Shown here in pieces: positions 15,366 to 60,475 of a stretch of 64,000 nucleotides of DNA (position 1 is the first letter of the stretch; each line of letters starts with the position of its first letter). The position numbers and the translations under genes were made by a program. Source of the DNA: Escherichia phage vB_Eco_slurp01; the sequence record LT603033; one strand, given 5' to 3'. The notes under the pieces are model-generated. The model did no database searches. It saw only the letters and a program-made list of their open reading frames with translations, and was not told the DNA's origin.

Positions 15366-15373
15366 AAAGTACT

Positions 15374-15713: not shown

Positions 15714-15742
15714 TTGACTTATTTTGTCAGTACTGGCATAAT
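15714..15742 (+). promoter_or_regulatory. Promoter driving a non-coding stretch
   Basis: TTGACT N17 CATAAT; no ORF over 25 aa follows. Confidence 0.5.
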
Positions 15743-15744
15743 GT

Positions 15745-15925
15745 ATTCATTGGCAGATAAGCCGTAGCCCATAGGGTGCGGGAGTGTATCTATAGAAAAA
15801 GTAGTTTATTACAGTTACAATTGTGCACCCGGTGGGTTAGCTGTTGTCATGGGGTATATTATGCCAGTACTGGATAGTGCTGTCAATACCTTTTTACTAT
15901 TCAGTACTGAAAACTATTTTTAAAA
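15745..15925 (+). ncRNA. Candidate small non-coding RNA
   Basis: Promoter-driven, no ORF; contains inverted copies of the CCCAYNGGGTGC motif that could pair. Confidence 0.3.
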
Positions 15926-15930
15926 AGTAC

Positions 15931-15958
15931 TTGCAAACTATGTTTAAAGGCGTATAAT
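15931..15958 (+). promoter_or_regulatory. Early promoter (upstream member of a tandem pair)
   Basis: TTGCAA N16 TATAAT. Confidence 0.7.
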
Positions 15959-15965
15959 GTTTTAC

Positions 15966-16040
15966 ATCAGGACGGGGAACGAAATAAGTAACTCCCCATT
16001 AAGTAGCCCAGGAGTAAGGCACACGAAAAACTCCCCTGAT
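15966..16040 (+). other. Conserved ~75-nt structured leader element (copy 1 of 3)
   Basis: ATCAGG...CCTGAT closing helix plus internal GGGGA/TCCCC stem-loop; near-identical copy at 25361-25433, related copy at 18275-18385. Confidence 0.5.
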
Positions 16041-16047
16041 AAAATAG

Positions 16048-16076
16048 TTTGAAAATTGTTTTTAAAAGCGTATAAT
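16048..16076 (+). promoter_or_regulatory. Second promoter of tandem pair
   Basis: TTTGAA N17 TATAAT. Confidence 0.5.
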
Positions 16077-16108
16077 ACTTACATCAACTACTGAATGAGG
16101 GTTACAAA

Positions 16109-16720
16109 ATGAAAACTATCACTACTACTACTTTCGTTATGGATTTTTCTGAATTGAACGCAGAACAAAAAACGTCAGCTATCGAACTGGTTCGGGAACG
16201 TGAAAAAAACTCAAACGACAATTATTTTTCTGAAAGTGAAATTGAATACTATAAAGAAACAGTACTACCGGAATATGGCATTAATGACGCTGAAATACAA
16301 TTCAGTGGTTTTTGGTCCCAGGGTGACGGTGCATCAATCAGTACTGACCACGTTGACGCAGTGAAGTTTTTACGCAAGGTAAGAGCATTAACTAAGTATC
16401 GCTCAATCCGTCACCTGCTGAATGAAGATGATTTGGCGATGAGTGTAAAGCGTTCTCACTCTCACTACTCGCATGAGAACACTGTAAGCGGGTACATTGA
16501 ATCGGCTTACACTGATTTAACCGCAAAACAAGAAACGTTAGTTAATGAGCTTGAGGAACTACTCACTGAAACTATTCGTGAATTGTCACGCAAGTTGTAC
16601 CGTGATTTAGAGAATGCATATGAGGATCAATTCACTACTGAAAACATCGTAGCACTGATTGAGGGTAACGAGTATCAATTCAATGTTATTGATGGCGTAG
16701 TAGAATCAATCGAATATTAA
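16109..16720 (+). CDS. Hypothetical acidic protein (203 aa)
   Basis: ORF track; GAGGG RBS. Confidence 0.75.
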   Translation: MKTITTTTFVMDFSELNAEQKTSAIELVREREKNSNDNYFSESEIEYYKETVLPEYGINDAEIQFSGFWSQGDGASISTDHVDAVKFLRKVRALTKYRSIRHLLNEDDLAMSVKRSHSHYSHENTVSGYIESAYTDLTAKQETLVNELEELLTETIRELSRKLYRDLENAYEDQFTTENIVALIEGNEYQFNVIDGVVESIEY

Positions 16721-16732
16721 TTCAAAAAGTAC

Positions 16733-16760
16733 TGGACACTAAGCAATAAAGGCGTATAAT
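16733..16760 (+). promoter_or_regulatory. Early promoter
   Basis: TGGACA N16 TATAAT; hairpin AGCGGGAA-TAG-TTCCCGCT at 16774-16792. Confidence 0.6.
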
Positions 16761-16812
16761 ACTTTATATCGAGAGCGGGAATAGTTCCCGCTACTAATGA
16801 GGAATACTACAA

Positions 16813-16977
16813 ATGAATACTTTTACCTTCGCTCAATTGAACGCCCTGGATGTATTGTCTGATGCTTTGCGGGATGCAACTGAAAGCGGTTTATTTGACA
16901 ATGTTGACATTCACCCTGATGTAATTAATAATTTTTGTGATGCTATCGCAGAAGTACTGGAAGATCTAAAAAAATAA
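16813..16977 (+). CDS. Hypothetical small protein (54 aa, below ORF-track cutoff)
   Basis: Own translation MNTFTFAQLNALDVLSDALRDATESGLFDN...; GAGGAA RBS; promoter upstream. Confidence 0.5.
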   Translation: MNTFTFAQLNALDVLSDALRDATESGLFDNVDIHPDVINNFCDAIAEVLEDLKK

Positions 16978-16987
16978 TAGAAAGTAC

Positions 16988-17015
16988 TTGCAATTAGTTT
17001 TTAGTACTGTATAAT
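16988..17015 (+). promoter_or_regulatory. Early promoter
   Basis: TTGCAA N16 TATAAT; hairpin 17028-17047. Confidence 0.7.
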
Positions 17016-17065
17016 AGTTTACATAGAGGGGAGAAATGGTTCTCCCTGGTAATGAGGAAAATAAA

Positions 17066-17287
17066 ATGGCTAATATCACTACTCTTTCTCAACTGGAAGC
17101 ACTGGTTAAATCTATGCGGGAACATGCAGACAATATCGGCGTAAAAGATCCAGCCGTTTGCTTCTGCGACGAAATGAATGATGATACACTGGTAATAGCA
17201 GAAGTACAAGATATTTCTAACTATTCATCGCGTTACACTGGCGGCGTAGCAAATAAAGGTGACTTCTGTTTATACCTTACCAAATAA
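17066..17287 (+). CDS. Hypothetical early protein (73 aa)
   Basis: ORF 17036..17287 trimmed to MANITTLS after GAGGAAAA RBS. Confidence 0.65.
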   Translation: MANITTLSQLEALVKSMREHADNIGVKDPAVCFCDEMNDDTLVIAEVQDISNYSSRYTGGVANKGDFCLYLTK

Positions 17288-17292
17288 CAACG

Positions 17293-17322
17293 CGGGGAGA
17301 TAATAACTCCCCGTTACTTTTT
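17293..17322 (+). terminator. Intrinsic terminator
   Basis: CGGGGAG-ATAATAA-CTCCCCG then TTACTTTTTC. Confidence 0.7.
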
Positions 17323-17455
17323 CAGTACTGAATCATTTAATAGACGGATCTCGGCACCCTGTGGGTTAGTGACTGTATCGTCTTTATGTAGTAATTATGC
17401 CAGTACTGGATGCACTTGTCAACAACTATTTTTCAAATACTTTTTATTAAAATAC

Positions 17456-17483
17456 TTGCTAATAGTTTTTAAACGCGTATAAT
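17456..17483 (+). promoter_or_regulatory. Early promoter
   Basis: TTGCTA N16 TATAAT; hairpin GGGGAG-CGG-TTCCCC at 17494-17508. Confidence 0.6.
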
Positions 17484-17529
17484 GTTTTGCATAGGGGAGC
17501 GGTTCCCCTGGTAACTAAGGAATAAGAAA

Positions 17530-17766
17530 ATGCTTGAACAAATCAAATCAACGTCTGCTAATGTAACGGGAACGGTATCACACTTTATTGGTGATGAATC
17601 GCGGGGCGTTCCCTATTGTGCTGTACATGTAAACACTGAGGGTAACTACTGGTTTACGGTTTACGGATCATATTCATTTGGACGGCCAGGGCATCAAAAA
17701 ATTCTGGATAAAGTACAACCAACGGGTAAAAATATCACTGCCGAAATGTTTTATAAAAAATCATAA
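17530..17766 (+). CDS. Hypothetical early protein (78 aa)
   Basis: ORF track; TAAGGAATAAG RBS. Confidence 0.7.
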   Translation: MLEQIKSTSANVTGTVSHFIGDESRGVPYCAVHVNTEGNYWFTVYGSYSFGRPGHQKILDKVQPTGKNITAEMFYKKS

Positions 17767-17771
17767 AGTAC

Positions 17772-17799
17772 TTGATAATAGTTTTTAGTACTGTACAAT
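17772..17799 (+). promoter_or_regulatory. Early promoter
   Basis: TTGATA N16 TACAAT; hairpin GGGGGAG-CGG-TTCCCCC at 17814-17830. Confidence 0.6.
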
Positions 17800-17850
17800 A
17801 TTTTACATCGCACGGGGGAGCGGTTCCCCCTGGTAACTAAGGATAATCAA

Positions 17851-18150
17851 ATGAAAATTGCAATCATCGCCCTGGCTTTATCTGTTTCCTCTTTCGCTGT
17901 TAACGCGTCGTTAGATGTACCTAGTGAAAAATTCATTCAGTGTACTGTTGCGATGACAGATGAAAGTACTGGCGAGATTGTTTTAAAGGATTTAGAGATC
18001 CAGTCAGAAGCATTTAAAAGCGGCCCGTTCCATGAAGAAGACGAAAAAGGTAGCACGACAATTTATTACGATGTAAGTACTAAGCGTGGATCGGTCACGG
18101 TTATGGATACTGAGAAAGTAACGCACACCGGAGTAATTAACTGTTTATAA
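17851..18150 (+). CDS. Putative secreted/periplasmic small protein (99 aa)
   Basis: N-terminus MKIAIIALALSVSSFAVNA|S has signal-peptide character (basic n-region, hydrophobic core, AxA site). Confidence 0.7.
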   Translation: MKIAIIALALSVSSFAVNASLDVPSEKFIQCTVAMTDESTGEIVLKDLEIQSEAFKSGPFHEEDEKGSTTIYYDVSTKRGSVTVMDTEKVTHTGVINCL

Positions 18151-18167
18151 TATAGTACTGAATCACT

Positions 18168-18196
18168 AGCCCACCTTAAACAGTGGGCTTTTTTGT
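18168..18196 (+). terminator. Intrinsic terminator
   Basis: AGCCCAC-CTTAAACA-GTGGGCT + TTTTTT; identical copy at 18894. Confidence 0.8.
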
Positions 18197-18238
18197 TTTG
18201 TAGTACTGCATACTTTAAAAATAGTTTTAAAAAAGTAG

Positions 18239-18266
18239 TTGACATTACCACAAAAAGGCGTAGAAT
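18239..18266 (+). promoter_or_regulatory. Early promoter with long structured leader
   Basis: TTGACA N16 TAGAAT; ~110-nt leader 18275-18385 related to 15966 element. Confidence 0.65.
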
Positions 18267-18389
18267 GTATTACATCAAGACGGGGAGCACTAAGTAGACC
18301 GCCAGTAAGTCGAACGAAAAACTGGACACGTCGATAAAACTTTGATACACTAATAAACGTAAACTAAACTTTAATTGAGGATTTATAAA

Positions 18390-18872
18390 ATGGCTAATGT
18401 AAAATCATTCCTGAAAGCACTGATTTCAAACGATACTGTTATTGCTGCTGAATTGCTGGCTGAACTGGATAACGATACAATGAAAGCGGTACGCAACAAT
18501 TTTAACATTGCGTACAGTGAAGCTAAAGAACTGCAAGCCAAAAAGGTAGCAGAACTGGAAGAACAGAAAAAAGCCCGTGAAGCAGAACTACAAGCAACAA
18601 TTGAAAGTATTCAGGCGGCAGTGTCTGGATTGGATCTGGAAGTGGTTGTAGAAATGGCACATAAAGCCCTGGCGGTTAAGTACGGTGAAGATAAGCCGGA
18701 ATCTAAACCTAAAAAATGGATTCAAGAACGTGTTACTGTAGTACTTGATAACGGTGAAGAACATTTGATTCCTGTACGCGGTAACTGCATTGCGGTAGTA
18801 CTGGACGCTATCAAAGAAAGCGGTATGACTCGCGAGGAATGGATCGAAGCTCATCGCAAAGTTGAAGCATAA
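18390..18872 (+). CDS. Hypothetical protein with predicted coiled-coil N-terminal half (160 aa)
   Basis: ORF 18375..18872 trimmed to MANVKSF after GAGGA RBS. Confidence 0.7.
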   Translation: MANVKSFLKALISNDTVIAAELLAELDNDTMKAVRNNFNIAYSEAKELQAKKVAELEEQKKAREAELQATIESIQAAVSGLDLEVVVEMAHKALAVKYGEDKPESKPKKWIQERVTVVLDNGEEHLIPVRGNCIAVVLDAIKESGMTREEWIEAHRKVEA

Positions 18873-18893
18873 CAATTAAAGTACTGAATCAAT

Positions 18894-18921
18894 AGCCCAC
18901 CTTAAACAGTGGGCTTTTTTG
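18894..18921 (+). terminator. Intrinsic terminator (duplicate of 18168)
   Basis: Same hairpin + T-run. Confidence 0.8.
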
Positions 18922-19074
18922 TGTCTATAGTATTCCAGTCCACTAGCACCGCCTAGAATCGATTCTAACGCATTAAACTGATTATCTGATACATCGCCCT
19001 AGCTGGTGGCGTTAAGGTCGTTAGAAAGCGATTGAGAGTGTTTAAAGTATTTTGCAAAAAGTAATAAAAAGTAC

Positions 19075-19102
19075 TTGCATGATTAAGAGATTAGCGTATA
19101 AT
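19075..19102 (+). promoter_or_regulatory. Early promoter
   Basis: TTGCAT N16 TATAAT; hairpin ~19115-19132. Confidence 0.65.
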
Positions 19103-19156
19103 GTTTTACATCGAAAGGGGAAACGGTTCTCCTTCCAAATCAAAGGAATCAAAACA

Positions 19157-19384
19157 ATGGCTATTATCATTACTCGCGTATCTGGTACTACTGGCAATTC
19201 TTCTACTGTTGCAGTCATTACTAACAAGGCAGGTGCGGAATTGCAAAATGCAATGAATACCTGGGCCGTTAATGAGTTCGGTCAGTGGGCAAGTGTAGCA
19301 TACATTGAAACCTATCAAGTGCCGACCATTAGTTTAACGGATCTTGGTGTGGAACGTATCCTTTGCTTGGATGAATTAAATTAA
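19157..19384 (+). CDS. Hypothetical early protein (75 aa)
   Basis: ORF 19052..19384 trimmed to MAIIITRV after AAAGGAAT RBS. Confidence 0.65.
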   Translation: MAIIITRVSGTTGNSSTVAVITNKAGAELQNAMNTWAVNEFGQWASVAYIETYQVPTISLTDLGVERILCLDELN

Positions 19385-19392
19385 AAAAGTAC

Positions 19393-19420
19393 TTGCAAAG
19401 TAAATCGAATAAAGTATAAT
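19393..19420 (+). promoter_or_regulatory. Early promoter
   Basis: TTGCAA N16 TATAAT; hairpin GGGGAGAA-ATGA-TTCTCCCC at 19433-19452. Confidence 0.7.
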
Positions 19421-19469
19421 ACATTACATCAAGGGGAGAAATGATTCTCCCCACTACAAGGAAACTAAT

Positions 19470-19613
19470 ATGAAAACTTGTCAATGTGGTAAAAAATCTA
19501 TTACTGGTTTAAAGCGGGGCGTTGCTCTTTGCCAGTACCATTATAATTTACAAGTATGGGGTAAAGAATGGGCCGACCAGGTGGAAGCAATTAAGAAAGC
19601 AAAAAGTAAGTAA
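19470..19613 (+). CDS. Small Cys/His-containing protein (47 aa), possible zinc ribbon
   Basis: Own translation MKTCQCGKKSITGLKRGVALCQYHYNLQVWGKEW...; below ORF-track cutoff. Confidence 0.45.
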   Translation: MKTCQCGKKSITGLKRGVALCQYHYNLQVWGKEWADQVEAIKKAKSK

Positions 19614-19632
19614 AAATATTATCACAGTACTA

Positions 19633-19661
19633 TTGACATAGTTTGATAGTACTGGCATAAT
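19633..19661 (+). promoter_or_regulatory. Early promoter (class without downstream hairpin)
   Basis: TTGACA N17 CATAAT. Confidence 0.7.
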
Positions 19662-19702
19662 AGATTTTATCAAGACAACATATTAATTTAAGGAATACTA
19701 AA

Positions 19703-20026
19703 ATGGCTAAAACTATCATTAACACCGTTTCCCTGGCTGCAATCCGTGCAATCAATGTTGACGGTAAACGTTGGACTGATTCATATGGCAATACTTATCA
19801 TTCTTGTCATGTAAGCGTCGAACTGGATAACGGTTTGAATGTTCTGGCGGTTGAATCATTTACTTATGGCTATGAAGATGCATATCAACAAACGGCGTTA
19901 GATCTATTAAAGGAATCAGTAGACGGGCTTAATACTGATGAAACCTCCCTTACTCGTTTGTGCAATGATCTTAATATCCCGTTGCATTGTACTGTACAGA
20001 ATGTTAAACGCAAAAAAGATCTTTAA
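19703..20026 (+). CDS. Hypothetical early protein (107 aa); paralog of 26137..26460
   Basis: ORF track; shared RWTDSxGNTYHSC...FTYGY...VKRKKD. Confidence 0.75.
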   Translation: MAKTIINTVSLAAIRAINVDGKRWTDSYGNTYHSCHVSVELDNGLNVLAVESFTYGYEDAYQQTALDLLKESVDGLNTDETSLTRLCNDLNIPLHCTVQNVKRKKDL

Positions 20027-20106
20027 TTAGCTTTACTTTATGCAGATACTTTGATATAGTGTCTGCATAGGGGAAAGAAATTAAATTAACTTAAGAGGAT
20101 CGTATA

Positions 20107-20376
20107 ATGAAAAATATCAGTACTTTAATCGATGCAGGTACACATGTTCGGCGGTCTATGGTTGCAACCAGTACTACAAAACAAGTAGCAAGCGGTTATC
20201 TTGTATTTGTGCACGATGGTAAACTCCTGGAACGTTCAATCAATTTTGATGTTAAAAACAATTGCCGTTTTATTATCTTTAAGCGTGAACAATATAAAAT
20301 TGATTTGCCAGCGAAGCCCATTAGCGGGGCGTACAACGTGCAATCATTGTTTGAGCGTCAACCATACACCTATTGA
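20107..20376 (+). CDS. Hypothetical protein (89 aa)
   Basis: ORF track; AAGAGGA RBS. Confidence 0.65.
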   Translation: MKNISTLIDAGTHVRRSMVATSTTKQVASGYLVFVHDGKLLERSINFDVKNNCRFIIFKREQYKIDLPAKPISGAYNVQSLFERQPYTY

Positions 20377-20427
20377 TCAAATCATCGTTAGTGGTCGATT
20401 TAGGCCGCTTATATTGGGGATTATACC

Positions 20428-20700
20428 ATGAACGTTAATCAAGTACTAAATGAAGTTGAAAGCATCATTAAACCAATGAAACGTATTGATGCAATGCTAA
20501 CACCGGAAGAATGCCGCCTTTATGAGCGTTACAGCGTCGAACAAGTCCAGGCGATGGCTATGGCTACCCCTGCCGTTAAACAGCCTGAGAATGCGTTACA
20601 GGACGTTACAGGGGATTATATCATTAATCCAGTACTAGGGAAGATTACACCAATCACCGAAGAAGAAAAAGACTACTTAAGCCAGTACTTAAAAGGTTAA
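20428..20700 (+). CDS. Hypothetical protein (90 aa)
   Basis: ORF track. Confidence 0.6.
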   Translation: MNVNQVLNEVESIIKPMKRIDAMLTPEECRLYERYSVEQVQAMAMATPAVKQPENALQDVTGDYIINPVLGKITPITEEEKDYLSQYLKG

Positions 20701-20705
20701 TTAAT

Positions 20706-20915
20706 ATGCTTACTGTACAGGATAAGATCGACATCTTAAAGGTTAATATGTATGTGATTGATGCAGATCCTGAAAAAGTATTTGCATACGATGATTCTAA
20801 TCGTAGTCCTTTTTATTGTAGTCATGTAGTTGGATACGTGCCGTTAGCGTATGTTATCGAAAGAGTGGTTGATTCAGCATACAAACATTTTTTAGAAAAT
20901 AATACTTGCAATTAG
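20706..20915 (+). CDS. Hypothetical protein (69 aa)
   Basis: ORF track; stop lies inside the next promoter. Confidence 0.55.
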   Translation: MLTVQDKIDILKVNMYVIDADPEKVFAYDDSNRSPFYCSHVVGYVPLAYVIERVVDSAYKHFLENNTCN

Positions 20916-20933
20916 TTTTTAGTACTGTATAAT
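20906..20933 (+). promoter_or_regulatory. Early promoter
   Basis: TTGCAA N16 TATAAT; hairpin ~20946-20967. Confidence 0.7.
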
Positions 20934-20984
20934 AGTTTACATGAAGTGGAGAAATAGTTCTCCCCACTAATTAAGGAATATGAA

Positions 20985-21131
20985 ATGAAAGCATCAAAAA
21001 AGAGTACTAATAAGAAAGCACGTTCAACTTTAGATGGGGTATTCCCTTTGCGTTTTGTGGATGAAGTGGTTTCCTACCCGCTGGGGCTTACTCCTGAGAT
21101 GGTAGAAAGTTTACGTAAATCTAAAAAATAA
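20985..21131 (+). CDS. Hypothetical small basic protein (48 aa)
   Basis: Own translation MKASKKSTNKKARSTLDGVFPLRF...; below ORF-track cutoff. Confidence 0.45.
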   Translation: MKASKKSTNKKARSTLDGVFPLRFVDEVVSYPLGLTPEMVESLRKSKK

Positions 21132-21134
21132 TAC

Positions 21135-21162
21135 TTGCAATTAGTTTTTAGTACTGTATAAT
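21135..21162 (+). promoter_or_regulatory. Early promoter
   Basis: TTGCAA N16 TATAAT; hairpin 21175-21194. Confidence 0.7.
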
Positions 21163-21212
21163 AGTTTACATGAAGGGGAGAAATGATTCTCCCCAAGAAC
21201 AGGAGAAATAAA

Positions 21213-21365
21213 ATGAAACAATATAATGCTCGGTTTGATGTTACTATCGGTAACGGTAAAGGTCAATTTTCTTTCAGTACTCGACGCAGTTATACAGAAA
21301 ACTTCCTGCGTAATTGTGCACTGACCGCCGCTCAAATTAAACATTATTTTCAGGCTAAAAAATGA
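21213..21365 (+). CDS. Hypothetical small protein (50 aa)
   Basis: ORF 21183..21365 trimmed to MKQYNARF after AGGAGAAA RBS. Confidence 0.55.
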   Translation: MKQYNARFDVTIGNGKGQFSFSTRRSYTENFLRNCALTAAQIKHYFQAKK

Positions 21366-21451
21366 AATCATTAGCTTATTACAGTTCGGCCCTGGTCGTT
21401 GCATTGATCGCGGCGTTGTTAGTAACCTATCTATTCTTTATGGTGATTTAA
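21362..21451 (+). CDS. Tiny hydrophobic peptide (29 aa), predicted single transmembrane helix
   Basis: Own translation MKSLAYYSSALVVALIAALLVTYLFFMVI; ATGA coupling. Confidence 0.35.
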   Translation: MKSLAYYSSALVVALIAALLVTYLFFMVI

Positions 21452-21589
21452 ATGAATCCTAACGGTATAATTTACAGTACTCCTAAAACGAAAGCAGACA
21501 AGGTAAACGCTAAAAAAGCGAAAGTAAAGGAGTACATCAAGCAAGGCATGACGCGAAAGGCGGCGATTCTAAAAGCTAAAAATAAATGA
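21452..21589 (+). CDS. Small basic protein (45 aa)
   Basis: Own translation MNPNGIIYSTPKTKADKVNAKKAKVKEYIKQGMTRKAAILKAKNK. Confidence 0.4.
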   Translation: MNPNGIIYSTPKTKADKVNAKKAKVKEYIKQGMTRKAAILKAKNK

Positions 21590-21595
21590 AAAAAG

Positions 21596-21720
21596 TGGTT
21601 GACTTCGGTCAGCCATTTTGCTATTATATATTCATTGAGAGATAGCTCACTAGCCCACAGGGTGCAGGAGTGTATCTATTGTATAATGTTTGAGTACTGA
21701 AAACTATTTTTAAAAAAGTA
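21596..21720 (+). repeat. Repeated intergenic module (hairpin overlapping TTGACT-N17-TATTAT promoter + CCCACAGGGTGC motif), copy 1
   Basis: Other copies at 25196-25320, 28463-28600, 30726-30870. Confidence 0.7.
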
Positions 21721-21721
21721 C

Positions 21722-21749
21722 TTGAAAACTATCTCAATTGGCGTATAAT
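21722..21749 (+). promoter_or_regulatory. Early promoter
   Basis: TTGAAA N16 TATAAT; hairpin 21764-21780. Confidence 0.65.
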
Positions 21750-21800
21750 GTTTTACATCGCAAGGGGAAACGGTTTCCCCTGGTAATAAGGAAACGAATC

Positions 21801-22142
21801 ATGACTATCTCAATTGCTCAATCTAACTTTGAAAATGAAATCATCGCCCAGGTACTGCGTTTAAATGATGGTCGGGCCGAAATTAATTACGGTTTCAATT
21901 CAGGCGGTTGTGAAAACTATCAGTACTTTGTAACGGCTGATGGCGGTGTCCTGGGCATCAATACAGTTATTGTAAACATCCAAAAAATTAATTTCAATGA
22001 TCCAGACGATAGCCAGTTTTACATCACTGGCGTAGACGTGAACTATGAGGATGACTCACTAACTGATGATTACACTGGTGAGCGGTTAGAAAGTGCTTAT
22101 GGTGAAGATGATTATCAGTCAGTACCGGAAGATTTCGAATAA
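21801..22142 (+). CDS. Hypothetical early protein (113 aa)
   Basis: ORF 21738..22142 trimmed to MTISIAQ after AAGGAAAC RBS. Confidence 0.7.
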   Translation: MTISIAQSNFENEIIAQVLRLNDGRAEINYGFNSGGCENYQYFVTADGGVLGINTVIVNIQKINFNDPDDSQFYITGVDVNYEDDSLTDDYTGERLESAYGEDDYQSVPEDFE

Positions 22143-22155
22143 TATAAAAAATAGT

Positions 22156-22183
22156 TTGACAATAGATTATAGTACTGTATAAT
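22156..22183 (+). promoter_or_regulatory. Early promoter
   Basis: TTGACA N16 TATAAT; hairpin GGGGAGAA-TAG-TTCTCCCC at 22196-22214. Confidence 0.7.
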
Positions 22184-22234
22184 AGTTTACATCAAGGGGA
22201 GAATAGTTCTCCCCACTAACAGAGAAAAAACAAA

Positions 22235-22447
22235 ATGGCTAATATCCGCACTGTACTGAAAAATGCAAAACAAGTTTTATTTTCTGATCATGATACTTTC
22301 AACAAGGATATTACTGGCGTTCGGAATATCAAAGATGTAAAAAGTGTTATGGGTATCTATTGCAATATGAAACGTGTTGGAACGTTCGGCGACAAAGTAC
22401 TATACCAGGCAGGGGATTACAATTTTACACTGACTATCATTAACTAA
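22235..22447 (+). CDS. Hypothetical early protein (70 aa)
   Basis: ORF track. Confidence 0.7.
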   Translation: MANIRTVLKNAKQVLFSDHDTFNKDITGVRNIKDVKSVMGIYCNMKRVGTFGDKVLYQAGDYNFTLTIIN

Positions 22448-22466
22448 AAATATTATCACAGTACTA

Positions 22467-22495
22467 TTGACATAGTTTGATAGTACTGACATAAT
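22467..22495 (+). promoter_or_regulatory. Early promoter (no-hairpin class)
   Basis: TTGACA N17 CATAAT. Confidence 0.7.
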
Positions 22496-22530
22496 AAGTT
22501 TTATCAACTACACTACTAAGGAATTAAAAA

Positions 22531-22710
22531 ATGGCTATCATCGCAAAAACTGAAATCATCGGCCTGGATTCTATCATCATGACGTTTGAAGATCAAAAAG
22601 GTATGTATGTGGTTTCCTATGGTGATTATGTTCGGGAGTATGAAACGGTAGACGAAGCCTTTGAAAGTTACATTCGCCAGGTGAATAAAGCATACGACGA
22701 CTACCGCTAA
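22531..22710 (+). CDS. Hypothetical small protein (59 aa)
   Basis: Own translation MAIIAKTEIIGLDSIIMTFEDQKG...; AAGGAATT RBS. Confidence 0.5.
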   Translation: MAIIAKTEIIGLDSIIMTFEDQKGMYVVSYGDYVREYETVDEAFESYIRQVNKAYDDYR

Positions 22711-22737
22711 AATATATTACCAGTACTATTAAAGATA

Positions 22738-22765
22738 TTGACAACGTTTGATAGTACTGTATAAT
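22738..22765 (+). promoter_or_regulatory. Early promoter
   Basis: TTGACA N16 TATAAT. Confidence 0.7.
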
Positions 22766-22808
22766 AAGTTTTATCAACAGTAGTTAACTTAACCTAAGAG
22801 AGAAACAA

Positions 22809-22913
22809 AATGATCGCACTGGATTCATTCATCGACGCAGTACTGGCAAAAACTGGCGAGGATCTGACCGCAGAACAATACGCAATGATCGAGCAATGCC
22901 AGCAAGACGGTAA
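22809..22913 (+). CDS. Short ORF (34 aa) with a more protein-like continuation in the +1 frame to 22953; possible frameshifted gene
   Basis: ATG after AAGAGAGA RBS; GGG run at 22859-22861 shifts frame. Confidence 0.3.
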   Translation, partial: NDRTGFIHRRSTGKNWRGSDRRTIRNDRAMPARR

Positions 22914-22959
22914 ATCGGTGAAAGATACTGTTAAGATTATCCGCAAGATGTAAGATTAT

Positions 22960-22990
22960 AGCCCACTGGTTAACGCTGGTGGGCTTTAAT
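22960..22990 (+). terminator. Putative terminator
   Basis: AGCCCAC...GTGGGCT stem then T-rich; stem includes a Chi octamer. Confidence 0.5.
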
Positions 22991-23058
22991 TCATTACCCT
23001 ATACAATGCCAGTACTAAACCGTTTATCTCCTTAGAATGCGTTACAGGACGTTTGACA

Positions 23059-23256
23059 ATGATTAGCATGAAATCAGTACAAAAACAAATAGAAACATTA
23101 TCAAAAATTAAACGTAAACAGTACTCGTTAGAATATACAATCAATGGTAACTATCATCTAATGAAAGAGAATAATTTCATTGTCATTGATGAATCATTGC
23201 AAATCATTAGTATAGTACTGAAAGCATTAATCAATGACAGAAAAAAATTAAAATAA
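23059..23256 (+). CDS. Hypothetical protein (66 aa)
   Basis: ORF track (TTG start at 23053) trimmed to first ATG; no clear promoter. Confidence 0.45.
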   Translation: MISMKSVQKQIETLSKIKRKQYSLEYTINGNYHLMKENNFIVIDESLQIISIVLKALINDRKKLK

Positions 23257-23260
23257 TATA

Positions 23261-23289
23261 TTGACAATATCCTCCAGTACTGGCATAAT
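23261..23289 (+). promoter_or_regulatory. Promoter followed by ~290-bp non-coding leader
   Basis: TTGACA N17 CATAAT. Confidence 0.65.
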
Positions 23290-23587
23290 ACTTACATCAA
23301 GACGAGAACGTCACTAACCCATAGGGTGCACAAATGTAACTGTATAATATTGATCAAAAAATGATCTGATCAATACTTGATCAATTTGCGTAAAGTAGTA
23401 TAATTCTATGCAGTTGGTTAGACGAAAGGTTATGATTAGTAGTGCAAGTGTATAAAAATTTTCATGGTGTATCGTTTCGCACATATGGGGATGAATATGT
23501 GGTATCATGTGGATTGGAAAAAGTAAGAACAAGTAATATTATTGTCGCATTACAGTACTATAGTATTTTTATAATGAGGTTAAAATA
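23290..23587 (+). ncRNA. Candidate non-coding RNA or long leader with clustered TGATCA/GATC
   Basis: No plus-strand ORF; TTGATCAA x3 + GATCTGATCAA within 23340-23395. Confidence 0.3.
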
Positions 23588-23845
23588 ATGGCTGTAGGAT
23601 TCGCGAAAGATGGGGCCGAACAAGACGAGATTAACGCAGTGATTCAGGCCGCCGTTAACCACGCTAGAAAGCAAATTAACGCACAAATAGAATCACTGAT
23701 ACATTGCCTCGACTGCGGCGATATAATCCCTGAGAAACGACGCCAGGCCGTTAAGGGGTGTAAGTACTGCATAACTTGCCAGGAGGATCATGATAGTACT
23801 TTTAAACGTCCCCCGCGTAATTGTTGGCATAGATCTATGAGATAA
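23588..23845 (+). CDS. TraR/DksA-family C4 zinc-finger protein (85 aa)
   Basis: CLDCGDIIPEKRRQAVKGCKYC fits C-x2-C-x3-I-P-x2-R...C-x2-C signature. Confidence 0.6.
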   Translation: MAVGFAKDGAEQDEINAVIQAAVNHARKQINAQIESLIHCLDCGDIIPEKRRQAVKGCKYCITCQEDHDSTFKRPPRNCWHRSMR

Positions 23846-23851
23846 AAAGTA

Positions 23852-23880
23852 TTGACAGTACTATCCAGTAGTGTTATAGT
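23852..23880 (+). promoter_or_regulatory. Early promoter
   Basis: TTGACA N17 TATAGT; hairpin GGGGAA-ACATC-TTCCCC at 23892-23908. Confidence 0.65.
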
Positions 23881-23926
23881 ACTTACATCAAGGGGAAACA
23901 TCTTCCCCTACTAAGAGGAAATGAAA

Positions 23927-24115
23927 ATGGAAAACTTATCAAGTATTTTAGTACAAGATGATTTCGGTAATCCTGGAAGTGCTATCATTGTTCGGGGTAA
24001 TAAAGCAACATTTGTTATTGCTGGTGGACCTGTACAGCGTAGCATTAAAAATAATGCTGTTACCATTAATAATGTACGCTATCGCTTAGATAAAGAATTG
24101 ATTCATAAACTGTAA
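23927..24115 (+). CDS. Hypothetical early protein (62 aa)
   Basis: ORF 23921..24115; second ATG has better RBS spacing. Confidence 0.6.
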   Translation: MENLSSILVQDDFGNPGSAIIVRGNKATFVIAGGPVQRSIKNNAVTINNVRYRLDKELIHKL

Positions 24116-24142
24116 TATTAATTTAATAGAGGATAACAATAA

Positions 24143-24466
24143 ATGTACATTCATACTACTATCACAAAGGAAGTCCGTTGCCAGTTCGAAAGTATTCCGG
24201 GCGTATGTTTCATCACTGGTACGTTTTCCCCTGGTGATCGTGATAATCCAGTACTGTTACAATTACGCCATCCATCATGGGATAAAGCATTTGATCTACC
24301 GTTGAATGAATTCGCAACTACTGCTGAAAAGTACATTAAAAATATTCGCGAGAATGATCGACTATTCATTAATGCTTTTAGTGATTCCGCGTTAAGCGAG
24401 ATCCACGGCGTATTGGTTGCAATCATGGAATCAATGGAGAAAACTAAATTCAAACAAGGTGAATAA
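24143..24466 (+). CDS. Hypothetical protein (107 aa)
   Basis: ORF track; GAGGATAA RBS. Confidence 0.65.
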   Translation: MYIHTTITKEVRCQFESIPGVCFITGTFSPGDRDNPVLLQLRHPSWDKAFDLPLNEFATTAEKYIKNIRENDRLFINAFSDSALSEIHGVLVAIMESMEKTKFKQGE

Positions 24467-24472
24467 AAACTA

Positions 24473-24500
24473 TTGACAAGATAATCTAGTACTGTATAAT
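24473..24500 (+). promoter_or_regulatory. Early promoter
   Basis: TTGACA N16 TATAAT; hairpin 24513-24532. Confidence 0.7.
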
Positions 24501-24549
24501 AAGTTACATGAAGGGGAGAAATGATTCTCCCCACTAAGAGGAAAGAAAA

Positions 24550-24762
24550 ATGCAAGGTCAACTAATCGTTCGTAAATGGTCTGATACTAACGAAAAACCG
24601 TGGGATGTACAATACATCGGACCGGATGGGGTATCACGTTATCAGCCAGGCGTAACGCATAGTACTGAGCAATATGCCGCCGCTCACCGCGAACGCCTGT
24701 TAGAATCCATGAAACAGGGATTCTGTGAAAAATTCATTCAAGATCATTGGCTGAAAGATTAA
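24550..24762 (+). CDS. Hypothetical early protein (70 aa)
   Basis: ORF track; AAGAGGAAAG RBS. Confidence 0.7.
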   Translation: MQGQLIVRKWSDTNEKPWDVQYIGPDGVSRYQPGVTHSTEQYAAAHRERLLESMKQGFCEKFIQDHWLKD

Positions 24763-24779
24763 TAGAAGGAGTACAGCTT

Positions 24780-24872
24780 ATGCAAATGAATCCGATGATT
24801 ATTGTTTTAGCTGTACTTATGATCATTCATGCAATAGTAGAAGTATTAACGCAATCAGGAGTAATAAAATGA
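24780..24872 (+). CDS. Tiny hydrophobic peptide (30 aa), predicted transmembrane
   Basis: Own translation MQMNPMIIVLAVLMIIHAIVEVLTQSGVIK; GAAGGAG RBS. Confidence 0.45.
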   Translation: MQMNPMIIVLAVLMIIHAIVEVLTQSGVIK

Positions 24873-25051
24873 TTCAAGTAGAATTATCAGTACTAAAAGA
24901 TCTGTTTTATCGGATTGGTACTACTGGCGAATATCCGAAGGGTGATAATGCAAAACTTTACGTATCACTCGACTTATGGCAACGCGAACAATTAGCAACG
25001 GCCTGGCGTAAAGGCAAAGCAGATAGCGAGGTGAAAGCATGAAAGAATTCT
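24869..25051 (+). CDS. Hypothetical small protein (60 aa)
   Basis: Own translation MIQVELSVLKDLFYRIGTTGEYPKG...; ATGA overlap. Confidence 0.45.
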
Positions 25052-39589: not shown

Positions 39590-39618
39590 TTGACAGTACT
39601 TTTCATTACTGATATAGT
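39590..39618 (+). promoter_or_regulatory. Internal promoter within family C array
   Basis: TTGACA N17 TATAGT. Confidence 0.55.
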
Positions 39619-46575: not shown

Positions 46576-46916
46576 GTAGATTTTCAGTTTATATAGTAAA
46601 CGTCAGTAAAGATGGTAGTTTAATTGAATTTGATGTAGTTGATAACAATGATAATTCATATGGTATTAAGGTACAGGACAATGTAGTGCAGTTCAGTACA
46701 AGGACAAATTTTGAGAATCCAGTCCAAGTTCCGAATTTCATAGAAGATGAAGCTGCACGATTCCAATACGAAACGGCCTTTGATAATATGCATATGCATA
46801 TTATTATGCAACAAAGTTTAGTTCAATTGCTTCAGGTATTCAGACAAAATATATATGTACATGAAGTGTCGATTAATGGCATTCAAAGTTCCGTATTGTT
46901 CGGTACAAATATGTAA
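46572..46916 (+). CDS. Family C-related protein
   Basis: ORF track; EAARFQYETAFD. Confidence 0.6.
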   Translation: MSRFSVYIVNVSKDGSLIEFDVVDNNDNSYGIKVQDNVVQFSTRTNFENPVQVPNFIEDEAARFQYETAFDNMHMHIIMQQSLVQLLQVFRQNIYVHEVSINGIQSSVLFGTNM

Positions 46917-46926
46917 GGAAAGTACA

Positions 46927-47478
46927 ATGAGTTCAATGAGTTTATTAGATACATTAGAAAAAGACAGAAGTGCAATTAAGCGTTTAAAAGAGCAAGTACA
47001 AAAGATTGTATACAACGTTGATAAGTTTGAAGTCCCAGGAAGATTTGGTGATATTTCCCATACGGAGATCAAATCCCTTAAGTCAGATTTGTTGATTAAA
47101 AATAAAAATGGGTTGATTTTAGTTTTGAGTTCAGATATGATGGGGGCAACACATAGTTATAATGCAGTATCGGTGCGTTCAGAGTGTGAAGGTATATATC
47201 TATCACAGGGTTTCAATAGCGAGACACAGGTTTGTTTTTGTGATGCAGTACATGACCCTATGAAGTTCACGAGAAGTGAAGCCCAAGCGTTATTAGAGCT
47301 ATCAGACGAGAGTTTGTTTCAGTACAGTACAATGTATGACAATGATAAGCTTCGTTGTATGTACGCTGTAAAGCATTATACACAGGAGTTCTCTGGATTT
47401 GCATACCTTTTAGTTAGAACCAATACCAGATATATTGATATGTTAGAAGATTACATCGATAAAGTTGTTAATGTATGA
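46927..47478 (+). CDS. Family C protein
   Basis: ORF 46855..47478 trimmed to MSSMSLL after AAGGAAAG; DESLFQYSTMYD. Confidence 0.6.
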   Translation: MSSMSLLDTLEKDRSAIKRLKEQVQKIVYNVDKFEVPGRFGDISHTEIKSLKSDLLIKNKNGLILVLSSDMMGATHSYNAVSVRSECEGIYLSQGFNSETQVCFCDAVHDPMKFTRSEAQALLELSDESLFQYSTMYDNDKLRCMYAVKHYTQEFSGFAYLLVRTNTRYIDMLEDYIDKVVNV

Positions 47479-47653: not shown

Positions 47654-47863
47654 ATGAAAAGTGCAAGTAATAGTGATATTGCAAAGGAGAAGTTGGAGTG
47701 CAGTTTAGATTACGGTTTAAATGATTTTCTTACATGCACAATGTACAGGAATGATGATTATGAGCAATCCGTAATTTCGTTGCACAGATATTTCGAAATA
47801 ATTTACGCAAGATATCTTAGAAGGTTAGAGGGAATAGGGGATTGGAATTATGATTACGTTTGA
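47654..47863 (+). CDS. Hypothetical small protein (start uncertain)
   Basis: ORF 47633..47863; competing 57-aa ORF at 47495..47668. Confidence 0.4.
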   Translation: MKSASNSDIAKEKLECSLDYGLNDFLTCTMYRNDDYEQSVISLHRYFEIIYARYLRRLEGIGDWNYDYV

Positions 47864-48074
47864 AGAGCCGGAAGTGGTATATTGCTATAGTGTGAAAGGT
47901 TTTGAATACATGATGGATTCTATTTTGAAGGATACATATTTGGTTCAGATTGCAGTTGCAGATAATACAGATAATGCATTACAGCGAGTATTGAATATAT
48001 ACGAGAAGACGAGTCGAAGGCTTTGTGCAATGAAAAGGATTGAAGAAATCAAGCTTTCTAGGCTGAATAAATAG
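47850..48074 (+). CDS. Hypothetical small protein (74 aa)
   Basis: ORF track. Confidence 0.55.
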   Translation: MITFEEPEVVYCYSVKGFEYMMDSILKDTYLVQIAVADNTDNALQRVLNIYEKTSRRLCAMKRIEEIKLSRLNK

Positions 48075-48276
48075 AGACGTTTCATTTTGACAGGCCGCAG
48101 GGGGTCAAAAAAATTTCCGCTGAAAAACATGCTAAGGTATATGTTTAATATAAAGTTTTATATTGTGTTTTTCAGAGTACAGTTCATGTTTCCTGAAACA
48201 AAAAATACCCCGCCCCCGCAACGTGCTCCTTATATTGGAGTTTACCTTATTAATTACAGTAGAGATTACAATTGAA
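48075..48276. other. Non-coding island inside family C array with atypical GC-rich tracts
   Basis: CCCCGCCCCCGC and GGCCGCAGGGGG; TTGAC/GTCAA and GTTTC/GAAAC hairpins. Confidence 0.5.
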
Positions 48277-48660
48277 ATGAAGATGCAAATAAAATATAAT
48301 GAATTTTGTGCAAGGACATGGATGTACACTGGTGAGTTAGTTACGCACTGTAACTTATACAAGGGTGATTTAAACTACGCCAGGGACAAGATTTTAAAGT
48401 ACTGGAATGCTGACTTTTATTTGATGGATTTTAGTACTGGGTTTCATGGGATATCTATCGAGATGCCGGACTATACAGTACTTGATGATGCTGCACTGTT
48501 TCAGGAGGCATTAGTATTTGATAAGAAGTACATCTGTACATTAGAAGAGATGATTGAATTACAGCGTAGAATTAAATGTATTCACAGGGAATGTATAGAT
48601 ATCTGGTGCAGTACTGGTGAGGCCGATTTATGGAAATTTTTTAATCTAGGAGAAGAGTGA
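48277..48660 (+). CDS. Family C protein
   Basis: ORF 48163..48660 trimmed to MKMQIKY; DAALFQEALVFD. Confidence 0.6.
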   Translation: MKMQIKYNEFCARTWMYTGELVTHCNLYKGDLNYARDKILKYWNADFYLMDFSTGFHGISIEMPDYTVLDDAALFQEALVFDKKYICTLEEMIELQRRIKCIHRECIDIWCSTGEADLWKFFNLGEE

Positions 48661-48821
48661 TGGAATTTGATTTTTTAATATCAGTACATTCTTTTAAGCA
48701 CAGTTATCAGTACTTTTGTAATTTAAACAAAGGTGATTTGATTATGGATACAGATACAGAGGCTGTATACAGTTCTAATATTCTGTACAAATTCAGTACT
48801 AATCTGAAGGAGATTTTATGA
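48660..48821 (+). pseudogene. Truncated N-terminal copy (53 codons) of the 49186 paralog
   Basis: First ~85 nt near-identical to 49186 start, then diverges to early stop. Confidence 0.5.
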
Positions 48822-49186
48822 AAAAAGAAATTAGAATTCAATTCGGTATGAGGAAAAAAGAGGTCATCTGTACACTGAATCATGCGGACGTGGAAATGGG
48901 TGGTGCATTACAAAAATTCTCACATTTTGTTCTTGTACTATATGAAAATGGGTCTTTTAAAATCTTCACATATGATGATTCAAAAAATTACCGTAATGAT
49001 TTTGTAAATCTTACAGTACTGTCAGAAGAGGAATTCTTTCAGGAAAGTACTGTCTGGAATTTACCAGGAGCACCAATTGAATACGTCCGTGCTACACAGG
49101 TAGAGATGATCAAAACAATGCAGAACTATCCAGAAGATTATATGACTAAGTTTCCTGAATCTTTTAATGTAGAGGTTGAGTACTGA
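48818..49186 (+). CDS. Family C protein
   Basis: ORF track; SEEEFFQESTVWN. Confidence 0.65.
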   Translation: MKKEIRIQFGMRKKEVICTLNHADVEMGGALQKFSHFVLVLYENGSFKIFTYDDSKNYRNDFVNLTVLSEEEFFQESTVWNLPGAPIEYVRATQVEMIKTMQNYPEDYMTKFPESFNVEVEY

Positions 49187-56038: not shown

Positions 56039-56575
56039 ATGTTAGATGAAAAAATGAACAATGGAACACAATATAATCATCTTAAGTTGGATACATTCGA
56101 ATCAGCTATCAGTACAGCACAAGATATAATTGATATTATCAAGTTCATTAAAGAAGATAAGTTCAAATGTTTGAAAATACTAAATCGTTCAATGTACCGT
56201 GATAACAATATTCATGTATCAGTACGTAGACCGAAAGATAAAGAAAGTGGGAGAGATTTCTATAACAACAGTGAGCAGTTCGAATGTGAATATGATCCAG
56301 AATTCAGAGGCGGTTTCATGTGTTACAGTATAAAGGATACCTCACACATTGAGATACGTTCATCGAAAGGTGGCATACGTACATTAGAGTTCATTGATAT
56401 AGTTTTAAATCAGGAATACTACTTTCAACTATCATTATTGTTTCCTGCATACGATTTAGGAGTTCTATTCATGTATAAGTACTTTCATGAGCACTGGAAT
56501 GAAGACTTCTATCTGGACTTAGAAGATTACCAATTAGTTTGGAAAGAAATGGTAGAACTTCGCAATCCCTCTTGA
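56039..56575 (+). CDS. Family C protein
   Basis: ORF 56021..56575 trimmed to ATG 5 nt after GAGG; QEYYFQLSLLF. Confidence 0.6.
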   Translation: MLDEKMNNGTQYNHLKLDTFESAISTAQDIIDIIKFIKEDKFKCLKILNRSMYRDNNIHVSVRRPKDKESGRDFYNNSEQFECEYDPEFRGGFMCYSIKDTSHIEIRSSKGGIRTLEFIDIVLNQEYYFQLSLLFPAYDLGVLFMYKYFHEHWNEDFYLDLEDYQLVWKEMVELRNPS

Positions 56576-56601
56576 CACCCACCGATTCTTTGTGATATAA
56601 T
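56572..56601 (+). promoter_or_regulatory. Internal promoter within family C array
   Basis: TTGACA N18 TATAAT with TGATATAAT extended -10. Confidence 0.55.
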
Positions 56602-60415: not shown

Positions 60416-60436
60416 AGACCCGTATGGGTCTTTTTG
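60416..60436 (+). terminator. Intrinsic terminator
   Basis: AGACCC-GTAT-GGGTCT + TTTTTGTG. Confidence 0.75.
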
Positions 60437-60446
60437 TGTTTATGGC

Positions 60447-60475
60447 TTTACAAGAGCATTCAGGTGTGTTATACT
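60447..60475 (+). promoter_or_regulatory. Internal promoter
   Basis: TTTACA N17 TATACT. Confidence 0.5.

Follow-up and report, generated by a model that had tools for sequence, protein, structure and literature searches.

Among described systems, those closest to the locus reported here include the promoter-early stem-loop (PeSL) cassettes of T4-type phages, conserved motifs between genes that have polyG/polyC stem-loops and indicate where gene shuffling has its breakpoints (Arbiol et al. 2010, PMC2839356; Comeau et al. 2014, PMC4122927). A second point of comparison is provided by the phage itself, whose terminal repeat holds (at about 12.8-31.4 kb) cassettes of about 85 nt composed of a TTGACA-N16-TATAAT promoter and a G-run/AATAGTT/C-run hairpin, in about 38 copies. 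A third is the group of contingency promoters of Neisseria, Haemophilus and Bordetella, in which a homopolymer lies between the -35 and -10 hexamers; to our knowledge such promoters are not known in phages of the Asteriusvirus group.

The stretch of DNA analysed here, referred to as the window, is 64 kb long. A 3-kb query around the locus matched 36 phage records, all from Escherichia/Salmonella jumbo phages of the genus Asteriusvirus, with the closest records at 93-97% identity. The matched records include 121Q, PBECO4, G17 and phAPEC6, and the window comes from a 121Q/PBECO4/G17-like E. coli jumbo phage. From 33 to 64 kb it consists of a single dense + strand array of small ORFs, with about 95 genes in 31 kb. 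Counting as a gap any stretch outside the + strand ORFs that begin with ATG and have 50 aa or more, we found five gaps of at least 50 nt in this array. The longest, at 48075-48276 (202 nt), is the sole long non-coding stretch of the 31-kb array and is limited on the left by the stop codon of ORF 47850-48074 and on the right by ATG 48277; we refer to it as the spacer. The remaining gaps measure 59-87 nt, and the following signals were found in them:

39590: promoter, TTGACA-17-TATAGT
56572: promoter, TTGACA-18-TATAAT
about 60418-60475: terminator AGACCCGTATGGGTCTTTTT (60418-60437), followed by a promoter, TTTACA-17-TATACT

These shorter gaps thus bear canonical signals, which indicates that gaps in the array are generally regulatory. 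The G17 record has terminators annotated elsewhere and no regulatory feature at the spacer locus, and our literature search found no expression data or transcript maps for any Asteriusvirus.

An alignment of 18 sequences divides the spacer into five parts, which are listed here together with the two flanking genes and the smaller elements inside the parts:

47850..48074, + strand: upstream ORFan of 74 aa, whose TAG stop ends at 48074 (from the ORF list)
48075..48276, no strand assigned: the non-coding spacer, single-copy and restricted to the genus
48087..48092, + strand: TTGACA, a -35-like hexamer in the short left flank, directly 5' of the G-rich tract
48093..48104, + strand: G-rich arm GGCCGCAGGGGG, with a G run (48100-48104) that is hypervariable in length
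48105..48207, no strand assigned: AT-rich interior of 103 nt, with A7 at 48107-48113
48120-48129 and 48166-48175: perfect 10-bp inverted repeat CTGAAAAACA / TGTTTTTCAG, inside the interior
about 48133-48160: nearly invariant block of the interior
48188-48199: near-palindrome GTTTCCTGAAAC, inside the interior
48208..48219, + strand: C-rich arm CCCCGCCCCCGC, hypervariable in sequence and length
48220..48267, + strand: near-invariant leader block AACGTGCTCCTTATATTGGAGTTTACCTTATTAATTACAGTAGAGATT of 47 nt, adjoining the start codon
48268..48279, + strand: 12-nt insertion ACAATTGAAATG, common only to the window, vB_Ec-M-J and WPEC3
48277..48660, + strand: downstream gene of the phrog_15629 family (PHROG E = 9.6e-55)

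All the motifs quoted in the initial annotation, that is, GGCCGCAGGGGG at 48093-48104, CCCCGCCCCCGC at 48208-48219 and two short inverted repeats, are present where it placed them. The C-rich arm is an imperfect complement of the G-rich arm. The leader block, which occurs once in the window, contains CTCC (48226-48229) and GGAG (48237-48240) as well as a weak Shine-Dalgarno-like TAGAG(A/G).

The 74-aa product of the upstream ORF has no PHROG or Pfam match; its orthologues are annotated in relatives, and the ORF is absent from A4 and truncated in SD-1_S14. A search with the downstream protein returned orthologues only in Asteriusvirus. In A4, in UE-S1 and in a truncated paralogue at 48660, about 20 residues precede the CNL motif of the phrog_15629 family, which places the start of the downstream gene at 48277/48283 and not at the internal ATG 48322. 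The right-hand boundary first drawn for the gap is therefore correct. The 12-nt insertion ACAATTGAAATG is the source of a TTGAAA hexamer and of ATG 48277, which is in frame; the ancestral start is ATG 48283.

The spacer shares several traits with the PeSL cassettes. It is a short, conserved sequence between genes of a hyperplastic array made up of small orphan genes; its polyG tract, beside which stands a TTGACA hexamer, precedes a polyC tract; and the breakpoints of insertions, deletions and replacements between related phages fall in or beside it. In contrast, it has no strong sigma-70 promoter, whereas a PeSL has TTGACA-N17-TATAAT or a close variant. A PeSL also has a compact stem-loop, often of the form polyG-loop-polyC, that works as a terminator or attenuator; the tracts of the spacer lie 103 nt apart and make no hairpin of such compactness. 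The spacer is present once per genome, as against about 50 times, and it is unlike the promoter/hairpin cassettes of this very phage. Lacking a strong promoter, and with its widely separated tracts and its single copy, the spacer is not a member of the PeSL class. The terminal-repeat cassettes have in common with the spacer the strand, a non-coding position before small genes and G-run/C-run arms, but they differ from it in the length, promoter, hairpin and copy number given above. An nhmmer profile built from 19 of these early promoter cassettes recovers about 38 copies at 12.8-31.4 kb and gives nothing in the spacer, even at E = 100, so the possibility of a degenerate early promoter cassette was rejected. 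The locus was also considered as a genome terminus or packaging site and discarded as such, the terminal repeat lying at about 12.6-33.6 kb, with its edge ~14.5 kb from the spacer.

The locus had originally drawn attention as an atypical GC-rich island. However, the GC content of its 202 nt is 35.6%, against 34.4% for the whole window and 31.6% for 40-64 kb, which puts it at the 61st percentile of all 202-nt windows and at the 85th locally, and 100-nt windows across it have 31-41% GC. The anomaly is confined to two 12-mers, GGCCGCAGGGGG (48093) and CCCCGCCCCCGC (48208), which lie 115 nt apart; no other 12-mer of the 64 kb reaches 11 G/C. When 33-64 kb was shuffled 500 times with its dinucleotides preserved, a pair of such 12-mers never fell within 150 nt, and when the entire window was shuffled 200 times it did so twice. 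The main value of the analysis is thus corrective, in that the supposed island becomes an intergenic leader of ordinary composition with two very short GC tracts.

Both tracts are highly variable. The G run measures 4-11 nt in the relatives, and the C tract has eight variants in 16 genomes, which differ by G/C exchanges and indels almost throughout, with a few A and no T. That the arms stay G/C-only in a genome of 32-35% GC points to selection for strong pairing or a GC clamp over any particular sequence, and suggests that G/C content, rather than a specific sequence, is what is kept. In three 121Q-like metagenome contigs the G run has 6, 6 and 7 nt, and even among near-identical 121Q-like sequences it differs (6, 6, 7 and 7 nt); length differences of this kind are consistent with either slippage or homopolymer sequencing error.

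The spacer does not code for a conserved protein. The window has a 48-aa ORF at 48129-48275, but in 7 of 16 relatives its frame is only 10 codons long, and the length of the ORF goes from 6 to 70 aa across the relatives. A version of 44-48 aa is present in the window, JP4, UB, PBECO4 and SD-2_S15, and is frameshifted or truncated elsewhere. Four homopolymers of the spacer carry indels of 1-2 bases, with the result that no frame is kept on either strand. The 48-aa product has no PHROG or Pfam match, and the annotators of the relatives disagree, calling differing tiny ORFs of 29-46 aa or none. A small protein at 48129-48275 was accordingly rejected as an explanation, on the lack of both a conserved frame and a family match. 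The early impression that no ORF is evident is borne out by the 16 relatives, in which none is conserved on either strand, and in the relatives the spacer does not belong to a longer coding sequence.

The spacer is well conserved. Its mean pairwise difference is 0.054 over the whole gap. The interior has a value of 0.051, the 47-nt leader block, which is the most conserved part of the gap, one of 0.028, and the C-rich arm one of 0.229. In the two flanking ORFs the difference is 0.11-0.12 at third codon positions and 0.06-0.10 at first and second positions. With the C tract left aside, the spacer is thus conserved at least as well as the neighbouring genes. This low diversity could also reflect recent recombinational spread instead of selection.

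Of the 36 Asteriusvirus records, 32 have the spacer, always at this locus and with 88-97% identity, and in 31 of these 32 it occurs in one place only. Searches of 5,426 complete E. coli genomes and of phages outside Asteriusvirus gave no match, and in IMG/VR only 121Q itself was matched; a scan of metagenomes gave three 121Q-like contigs and three unrelated chance matches. In UE-S1 the spacer is absent, and the same two genes are separated by an unrelated gap of 45 nt. In ph0011 only roughly the last 50 nt are kept, an unrelated AT-rich stretch having replaced both GC tracts and the interior, and this replacement ends exactly after the C tract. In SD-1_S14 a deletion starts within the upstream gene and ends immediately ahead of the A run that leads into the C tract. 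In A4 the sequence from the G tract to the start codon is kept, at 94.2% identity, with the left junction at the G tract; the upstream neighbour is here a phrog_30243 homologue that is 29% identical to the product of 46855-47478 in the window, and the downstream gene is 38% identical. The left neighbour of the module therefore varies (the 74-aa ORF, its truncated form in SD-1_S14 or the phrog_30243 homologue in A4), whereas its right neighbour is a member of phrog_15629 in every genome that bears the module. The leader block is retained in A4, ph0011 and SD-1_S14, in which the sequence to its left has been replaced.

This distribution bears on two suggestions of the initial annotation. A foreign origin was suggested there by the composition; searched alone, the spacer is found in Asteriusvirus only, with no hit in the 5,426 E. 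coli genomes or in phages of other genera, and it keeps the same locus in 32 records, so that host or foreign origin can be set aside. A recombination site gains some support from the breakpoints in A4, ph0011 and SD-1_S14, which fall at or within about 10 nt of the G/C tracts, and from UE-S1, which lacks the whole spacer, but overall the support is only partial. The insertion of mobile or other foreign DNA, either a miniature element with GC-rich terminal inverted repeats or a host-derived segment, would account for imperfect inverted GC arms around an AT-rich core, for the presence/absence polymorphism seen with UE-S1 and ph0011 and for a replaced segment in ph0011 that ends at the outer edge of the C arm. 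However, a MITE-like element would be expected to show more than imperfect GC arms: the spacer has no target-site duplication (its flanks are GACA and AACG), it is unique in the window and single-copy per genome, and its composition is typical of the phage. In view of these differences and of the empty searches outside the genus, we regard an insertion as highly improbable.

In our view the spacer is a real non-coding element that is ordinary in kind, namely a phage intergenic leader/junction, and most likely it is an ordinary upstream control or leader region. With somewhat less than even confidence, we propose more specifically a module with a leader or regulatory role that goes with the downstream phrog_15629-family gene and, in addition, marks a junction of the mosaic. 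The fixed right neighbour, the location of the most conserved 47 nt at the start codon and the identity that is maintained amid diverged genes all argue for a cis-acting, non-coding module that would belong to the downstream gene within the early small-gene array. Such a module would comprise the 47-nt leader, with its weak ribosome-binding sequence, the 103-nt AT-rich interior, and the two GC-only arms, which as imperfect inverted repeats would clamp the interior. We infer that it is transcribed within a + strand polycistronic early mRNA, where it may set the expression of the downstream gene block, either as an untranslated leader or as a punctuation element. The GC arms would, in the same tentative proposal and with no greater confidence, be mutational hot spots through homopolymer slippage. 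The module may in addition serve as a homology patch for the exchange or deletion of neighbouring small genes, since identity of ~94% is kept between genes that have diverged to 29-38% amino-acid identity, and the breakpoints of A4, ph0011 and SD-1_S14, at or beside the GC tracts, suggest a point of entry for homologous exchange, much as with the PeSL cassettes. Such a role agrees with the view that modular shuffling in large phages is steered by conserved patches between genes. Any specific molecular mechanism for the spacer is proposed with low confidence.

Against the leader reading stand the lack of a conserved promoter, of a terminator-like site and of compensatory changes, folding on the + strand that does not surpass shuffles, and the fact that the module is dispensable, being missing from UE-S1, while ph0011 does without the GC arms and the interior. 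This dispensability keeps alive the reading of the spacer as a relic that has no present function, left either by a lost small gene or by a broken polyG...polyC promoter/stem-loop cassette, with only the last ~50 nt, where translation of the next gene is initiated, under constraint. An ORF of 44-48 aa that is intact in some relatives and broken in others resembles a decaying gene, and indels that gather in homopolymers are what unconstrained DNA shows. A cassette origin would be in line with the many G-run/loop/C-run hairpins that stand beside promoters in the terminal repeat, and with published PeSL stem-loops, in which polyG is often followed by polyC (PMC2839356). However, the diversity of the interior is about half that of the flanking third codon positions, and the module stays 94% identical in A4 amid flanking genes at 29-38%, neither of which is expected of a relic; moreover, the spacer bears no likeness to the cassette profile, and its ORF belongs to no family. 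On balance, we consider the relic rather unlikely.

As regards transcription signals, the claim that the spacer has no standard promoter stands insofar as none is conserved in the relatives, but our scan lists two candidate sites. The first, TTGACA-16-AAAAAT at 48087, matches at 10 of 12 positions and has the G run inside its 16-nt spacing. In the relatives this spacing ranges over 14-21 nt, with the optimum of 16-18 nt in only 5 of 15 isolates and 14 or 19-21 nt in the rest. The -35 hexamer matches the consensus at 5 or more of 6 positions in all relatives, although its G is variable (TTCACA or TTTACA in 8 of them), and the -10 candidate AAAAAT is poor, lacking both a T in the first position and a TG extension. 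The second site, TTGAAA-17-TATAAT (48272-48300), matches at 11 of 12 positions, but its TTGAAA comes from the 12-nt insertion and is found in three genomes only. With the start of the gene at 48277/48283, its TATAAT falls within the coding sequence, and the pairing of this promoter with a start at ATG 48322 was rejected as the main signal on both grounds. A weak promoter-like sequence on the - strand, CTGAAA-17-TATATT (48175-48147), matches at 9 of 12 positions, and no other -35/-10 pair in the spacer fits.

The first of these sites could be taken for a phase-variable sigma-70 promoter (TTGACA 48087, AAAAAT 48109) in which a slippery G run between the hexamers toggles the downstream block, as in the contingency promoters mentioned above. 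The good -35 in all relatives and the position of a G run of 4-11 nt between the hexamers, with different lengths among near-identical 121Q-like sequences, are in accordance with this. In contrast to the contingency promoters, however, the -10 of the spacer is weak and the spacing is non-functional in most genomes; the G of the -35 is not conserved, the observed differences in homopolymer length may be sequencing error, and the real early promoters of this phage are near-perfect, stereotyped TTGACA-N16/17-TATAAT sequences, whose profile the spacer fails. Altogether, a promoter of this type is very unlikely. If the variation of the G run is real within populations, it would nevertheless make the spacer a rare example, in a phage, of a candidate site for phase-variable control.

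Two phage-type promoters were also examined and rejected. TATAAAG at 48149 resembles the T4-type late promoter TATAAATA, but this exact octamer occurs nowhere in the window, which means that a late-promoter reading cannot be calibrated. As for a T4 middle-promoter (MotA) box, the TGCTCC present in the spacer directly abuts the candidate -10, instead of lying at the expected distance of about 12 nt. A terminator scan gave no site in 48075-48276 on either strand. The spacer resembles an intrinsic (Rho-independent) terminator such as AGACCCGTATGGGTCTTTTT in having GC-rich sequence by a homopolymer run after a stop codon, but it differs from one in having no compact GC stem and in that the run is A7 on the coding strand and not U. 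Such terminators have a GC-rich hairpin with a loop of 3-8 nt before the U tract, whereas TTGAC/GTCAA offers 5 pairs and a 12-nt loop.

The initial annotation also pointed to two hairpins and to a structured small RNA. The hairpin sequences are present: TTGAC (48087-48091) and GTCAA (48104-48108) could form a 5-bp stem with a 12-nt loop, followed by A7, and GTTTC (48188-48192) and GAAAC (48195-48199) a 5-bp stem with a 2-nt loop. However, these stems of only 5 bp are broken in relatives with no compensating change, the G of TTGAC being C or T in 8 relatives and GAAAC being TAAAC in 3. The same is observed for the 10-bp inverted repeat CTGAAAAACA/TGTTTTTCAG, the right arm of which is changed (TTCACAG) in 4 of 15 relatives, again uncompensated. 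The relatives with this altered right arm are EcMJ, WPEC3, Turkey3 and fEgEco12.

Neither Rfam nor ARAGORN identified a known RNA in the spacer: there was no tRNA, no Rfam match at the gathering score and only chance-level matches with E up to 10, the best sub-threshold scores being 16-21 bits against thresholds of 48-79. In an RNAalifold analysis of 15 sequences none of the 40 predicted pairs is compensatory, and the covariation term is -0.11 kcal/mol. The folding of the 271-nt region does not differ from that of shuffled sequences (z = +0.48 on the + strand and +0.57 on the other), and the 142-nt element bounded by the GC arms gives z = -0.38 (+ strand), -1.89 (- strand, for which 6 of 200 shuffles fold as well) and -1.51 as DNA. 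With no compensatory pair and with folds comparable to shuffles, save for the marginal - strand value, a conserved RNA structure was rejected.

When the 142-nt element is folded alone, the arms are predicted to form the closing helix of the + strand MFE structure in every one of the 16 relatives with both arms; the G17 helix spans 11 nt, with 9 pairs, one mismatch and one bulge. Since G and C runs can be expected to pair by composition alone, this agreement is weak evidence; it fits a G:C clamp and does not prove one.

An independent small RNA gene, or an RNA element dependent on a specific fold, would agree with the conservation of a non-coding sequence, with the - strand z value of the 142-nt element and with the weak - strand promoter-like site. 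However, the spacer does not reach even one third of the gathering score of any Rfam family, its pairs show no compensation, the other folds give z values of +0.48, +0.57 and -0.38, the two named hairpins and the 10-bp repeat are broken, and there is no terminator on either strand. The structured small RNA suggested at the outset is therefore not upheld, and we consider an RNA gene or a fold-dependent element of this kind quite improbable.

Conservation that is accompanied by neither coding nor RNA-fold signals, together with a 103-nt low-GC segment with A/T runs between two G/C-only 12-mers, and with z = -1.51 for single-stranded DNA, might instead indicate a site that acts at the DNA level. 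This could be a replication-initiation or unwinding element, possibly prone to R-loops through the G run, or a binding site for a phage protein. No iterons or repeated boxes beyond chance were found in the spacer, however, and UE-S1 and ph0011 show that it is dispensable; a DNA-level site is, to our mind, similarly improbable.

A related possibility, to which we give hardly any weight, is that the GC arms, together with the AT-rich interior, make up either a hypermutable switch or an initiation element at the DNA level. As the G run slips and the C tract turns over, either the spacing of a promoter or the stability of a G:C clamp in RNA, single-stranded DNA or an R-loop would then be altered. 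If a hypermutable switch were indeed present, virions would differ in the expression of the downstream block of host-interaction genes, and the jumbo phage would have a contingency locus here. Returning to the leader and junction proposed here, the one mildly curious detail of the spacer is its hypervariable G/C-only tracts.

In the 12.8-31.4 kb region of the window, one stereotyped cassette recurs in about 38 copies on the + strand, between positions of about 12,800 and 31,400, each located in one of the gaps of roughly 85 nt that separate small ORFs. Downstream of the cassette promoter there is usually a compact G-run/AATAGTT/C-run hairpin, followed by ACTAA, a ribosome-binding site and ATG. 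The layout and one example of the hairpin are as follows:

Cassette layout, about 12,800-31,400, + strand, 5' to 3': A-rich stretch, TTGACA, N9, AGTACTG, TATAAT, A(G)TTTACATCAAG
Cassette hairpin, example near 22195: GGGGAGAATAGTTCTCCCC

The window + strand holds 11 sites matching the sigma-70 consensus at 12/12 positions, ten of which fall within 12.8-31.4 kb and the remaining one at 56572. The cassettes look like the promoter-early stem-loop (PeSL) type of promoter/stem-loop cassette known from T4-type phages, here in an Asteriusvirus. The hexamer AGTACT recurs at nearly every early promoter between 12,000 and 33,000, frequently as AGTACTG immediately 5' of the -10 element, and is also found upstream of the -35 element (e.g. 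'cacagtacta TTGACA'). The hexamer may serve either as part of an extended -10 context or in the binding of a phage or host factor.

In the related phage fEgEco12, a direct terminal repeat of 20,993 bp is experimentally supported (PMC13070987). Mapping the window onto this genome places the left edge of the repeat at ~12.6 kb and the right edge at ~33.6 kb. The window thus runs from the last part of the unique region through the terminal repeat into the first part of the unique region, which is the arrangement of a circularly permuted or collapsed assembly. This placement agrees with the switch of strand and GC skew at ~12 kb, with the promoter-cassette region and with the drop in GC past 33 kb.

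In the tightly packed array of small ORFs at 33-64 kb, canonical signals occur in the other short gaps, and probably mark transcription-unit boundaries:

39590-39618: TTGACA-17-TATAGT
56572-56601: TTGACA-18-TATAAT, 12/12
60418-60475: intrinsic terminator AGACCCGTATGGGTCTTTTT, then TTTACA-17-TATACT

The T4-type late-promoter octamer TATAAATA has no occurrence on either strand of the whole window, where shuffled sequences lead to an expectation of 15.7 +/- 3.9, and TATAAAT is present 21 times (both strands) and is never followed by A. Such strong avoidance suggests that the octamer functions as a signal in the phage.

At the downstream side of the non-coding spacer (48075-48276), the window carries an in-frame insertion of 12 nt, ACAATTGAAATG (48268-48279), which otherwise occurs in vB_Ec-M-J and WPEC3 alone. 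The insertion provides a second start codon, at 48277, as well as a TTGAAA that, together with a TATAAT at 48295, forms an 11/12 promoter-like site, the TATAAT falling within the first codons of the downstream gene. This 127-aa gene belongs to the phrog_15629 family, and the 54-aa ORF directly after it (48657-48821) matches the same family at positions 1-39 only (E = 1.3e-09) and is either a tandem paralogue in truncated form or a fragment of a gene. It is followed by a gene at 48818-49186 that is assigned to phrog_13866, a distant relative of the phrog_15629 family. In UE-S1, the counterpart of the 127-aa gene and the small ORFs after it is a single annotated ORF of 243 aa (707-1435 of its locus sequence), which may represent a fused or an unbroken ancestral form. 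In SD-1_S14 (622-753 of its locus sequence), a deletion has left the 5' part of the 74-aa gene on the upstream side fused to the spacer's C tract.
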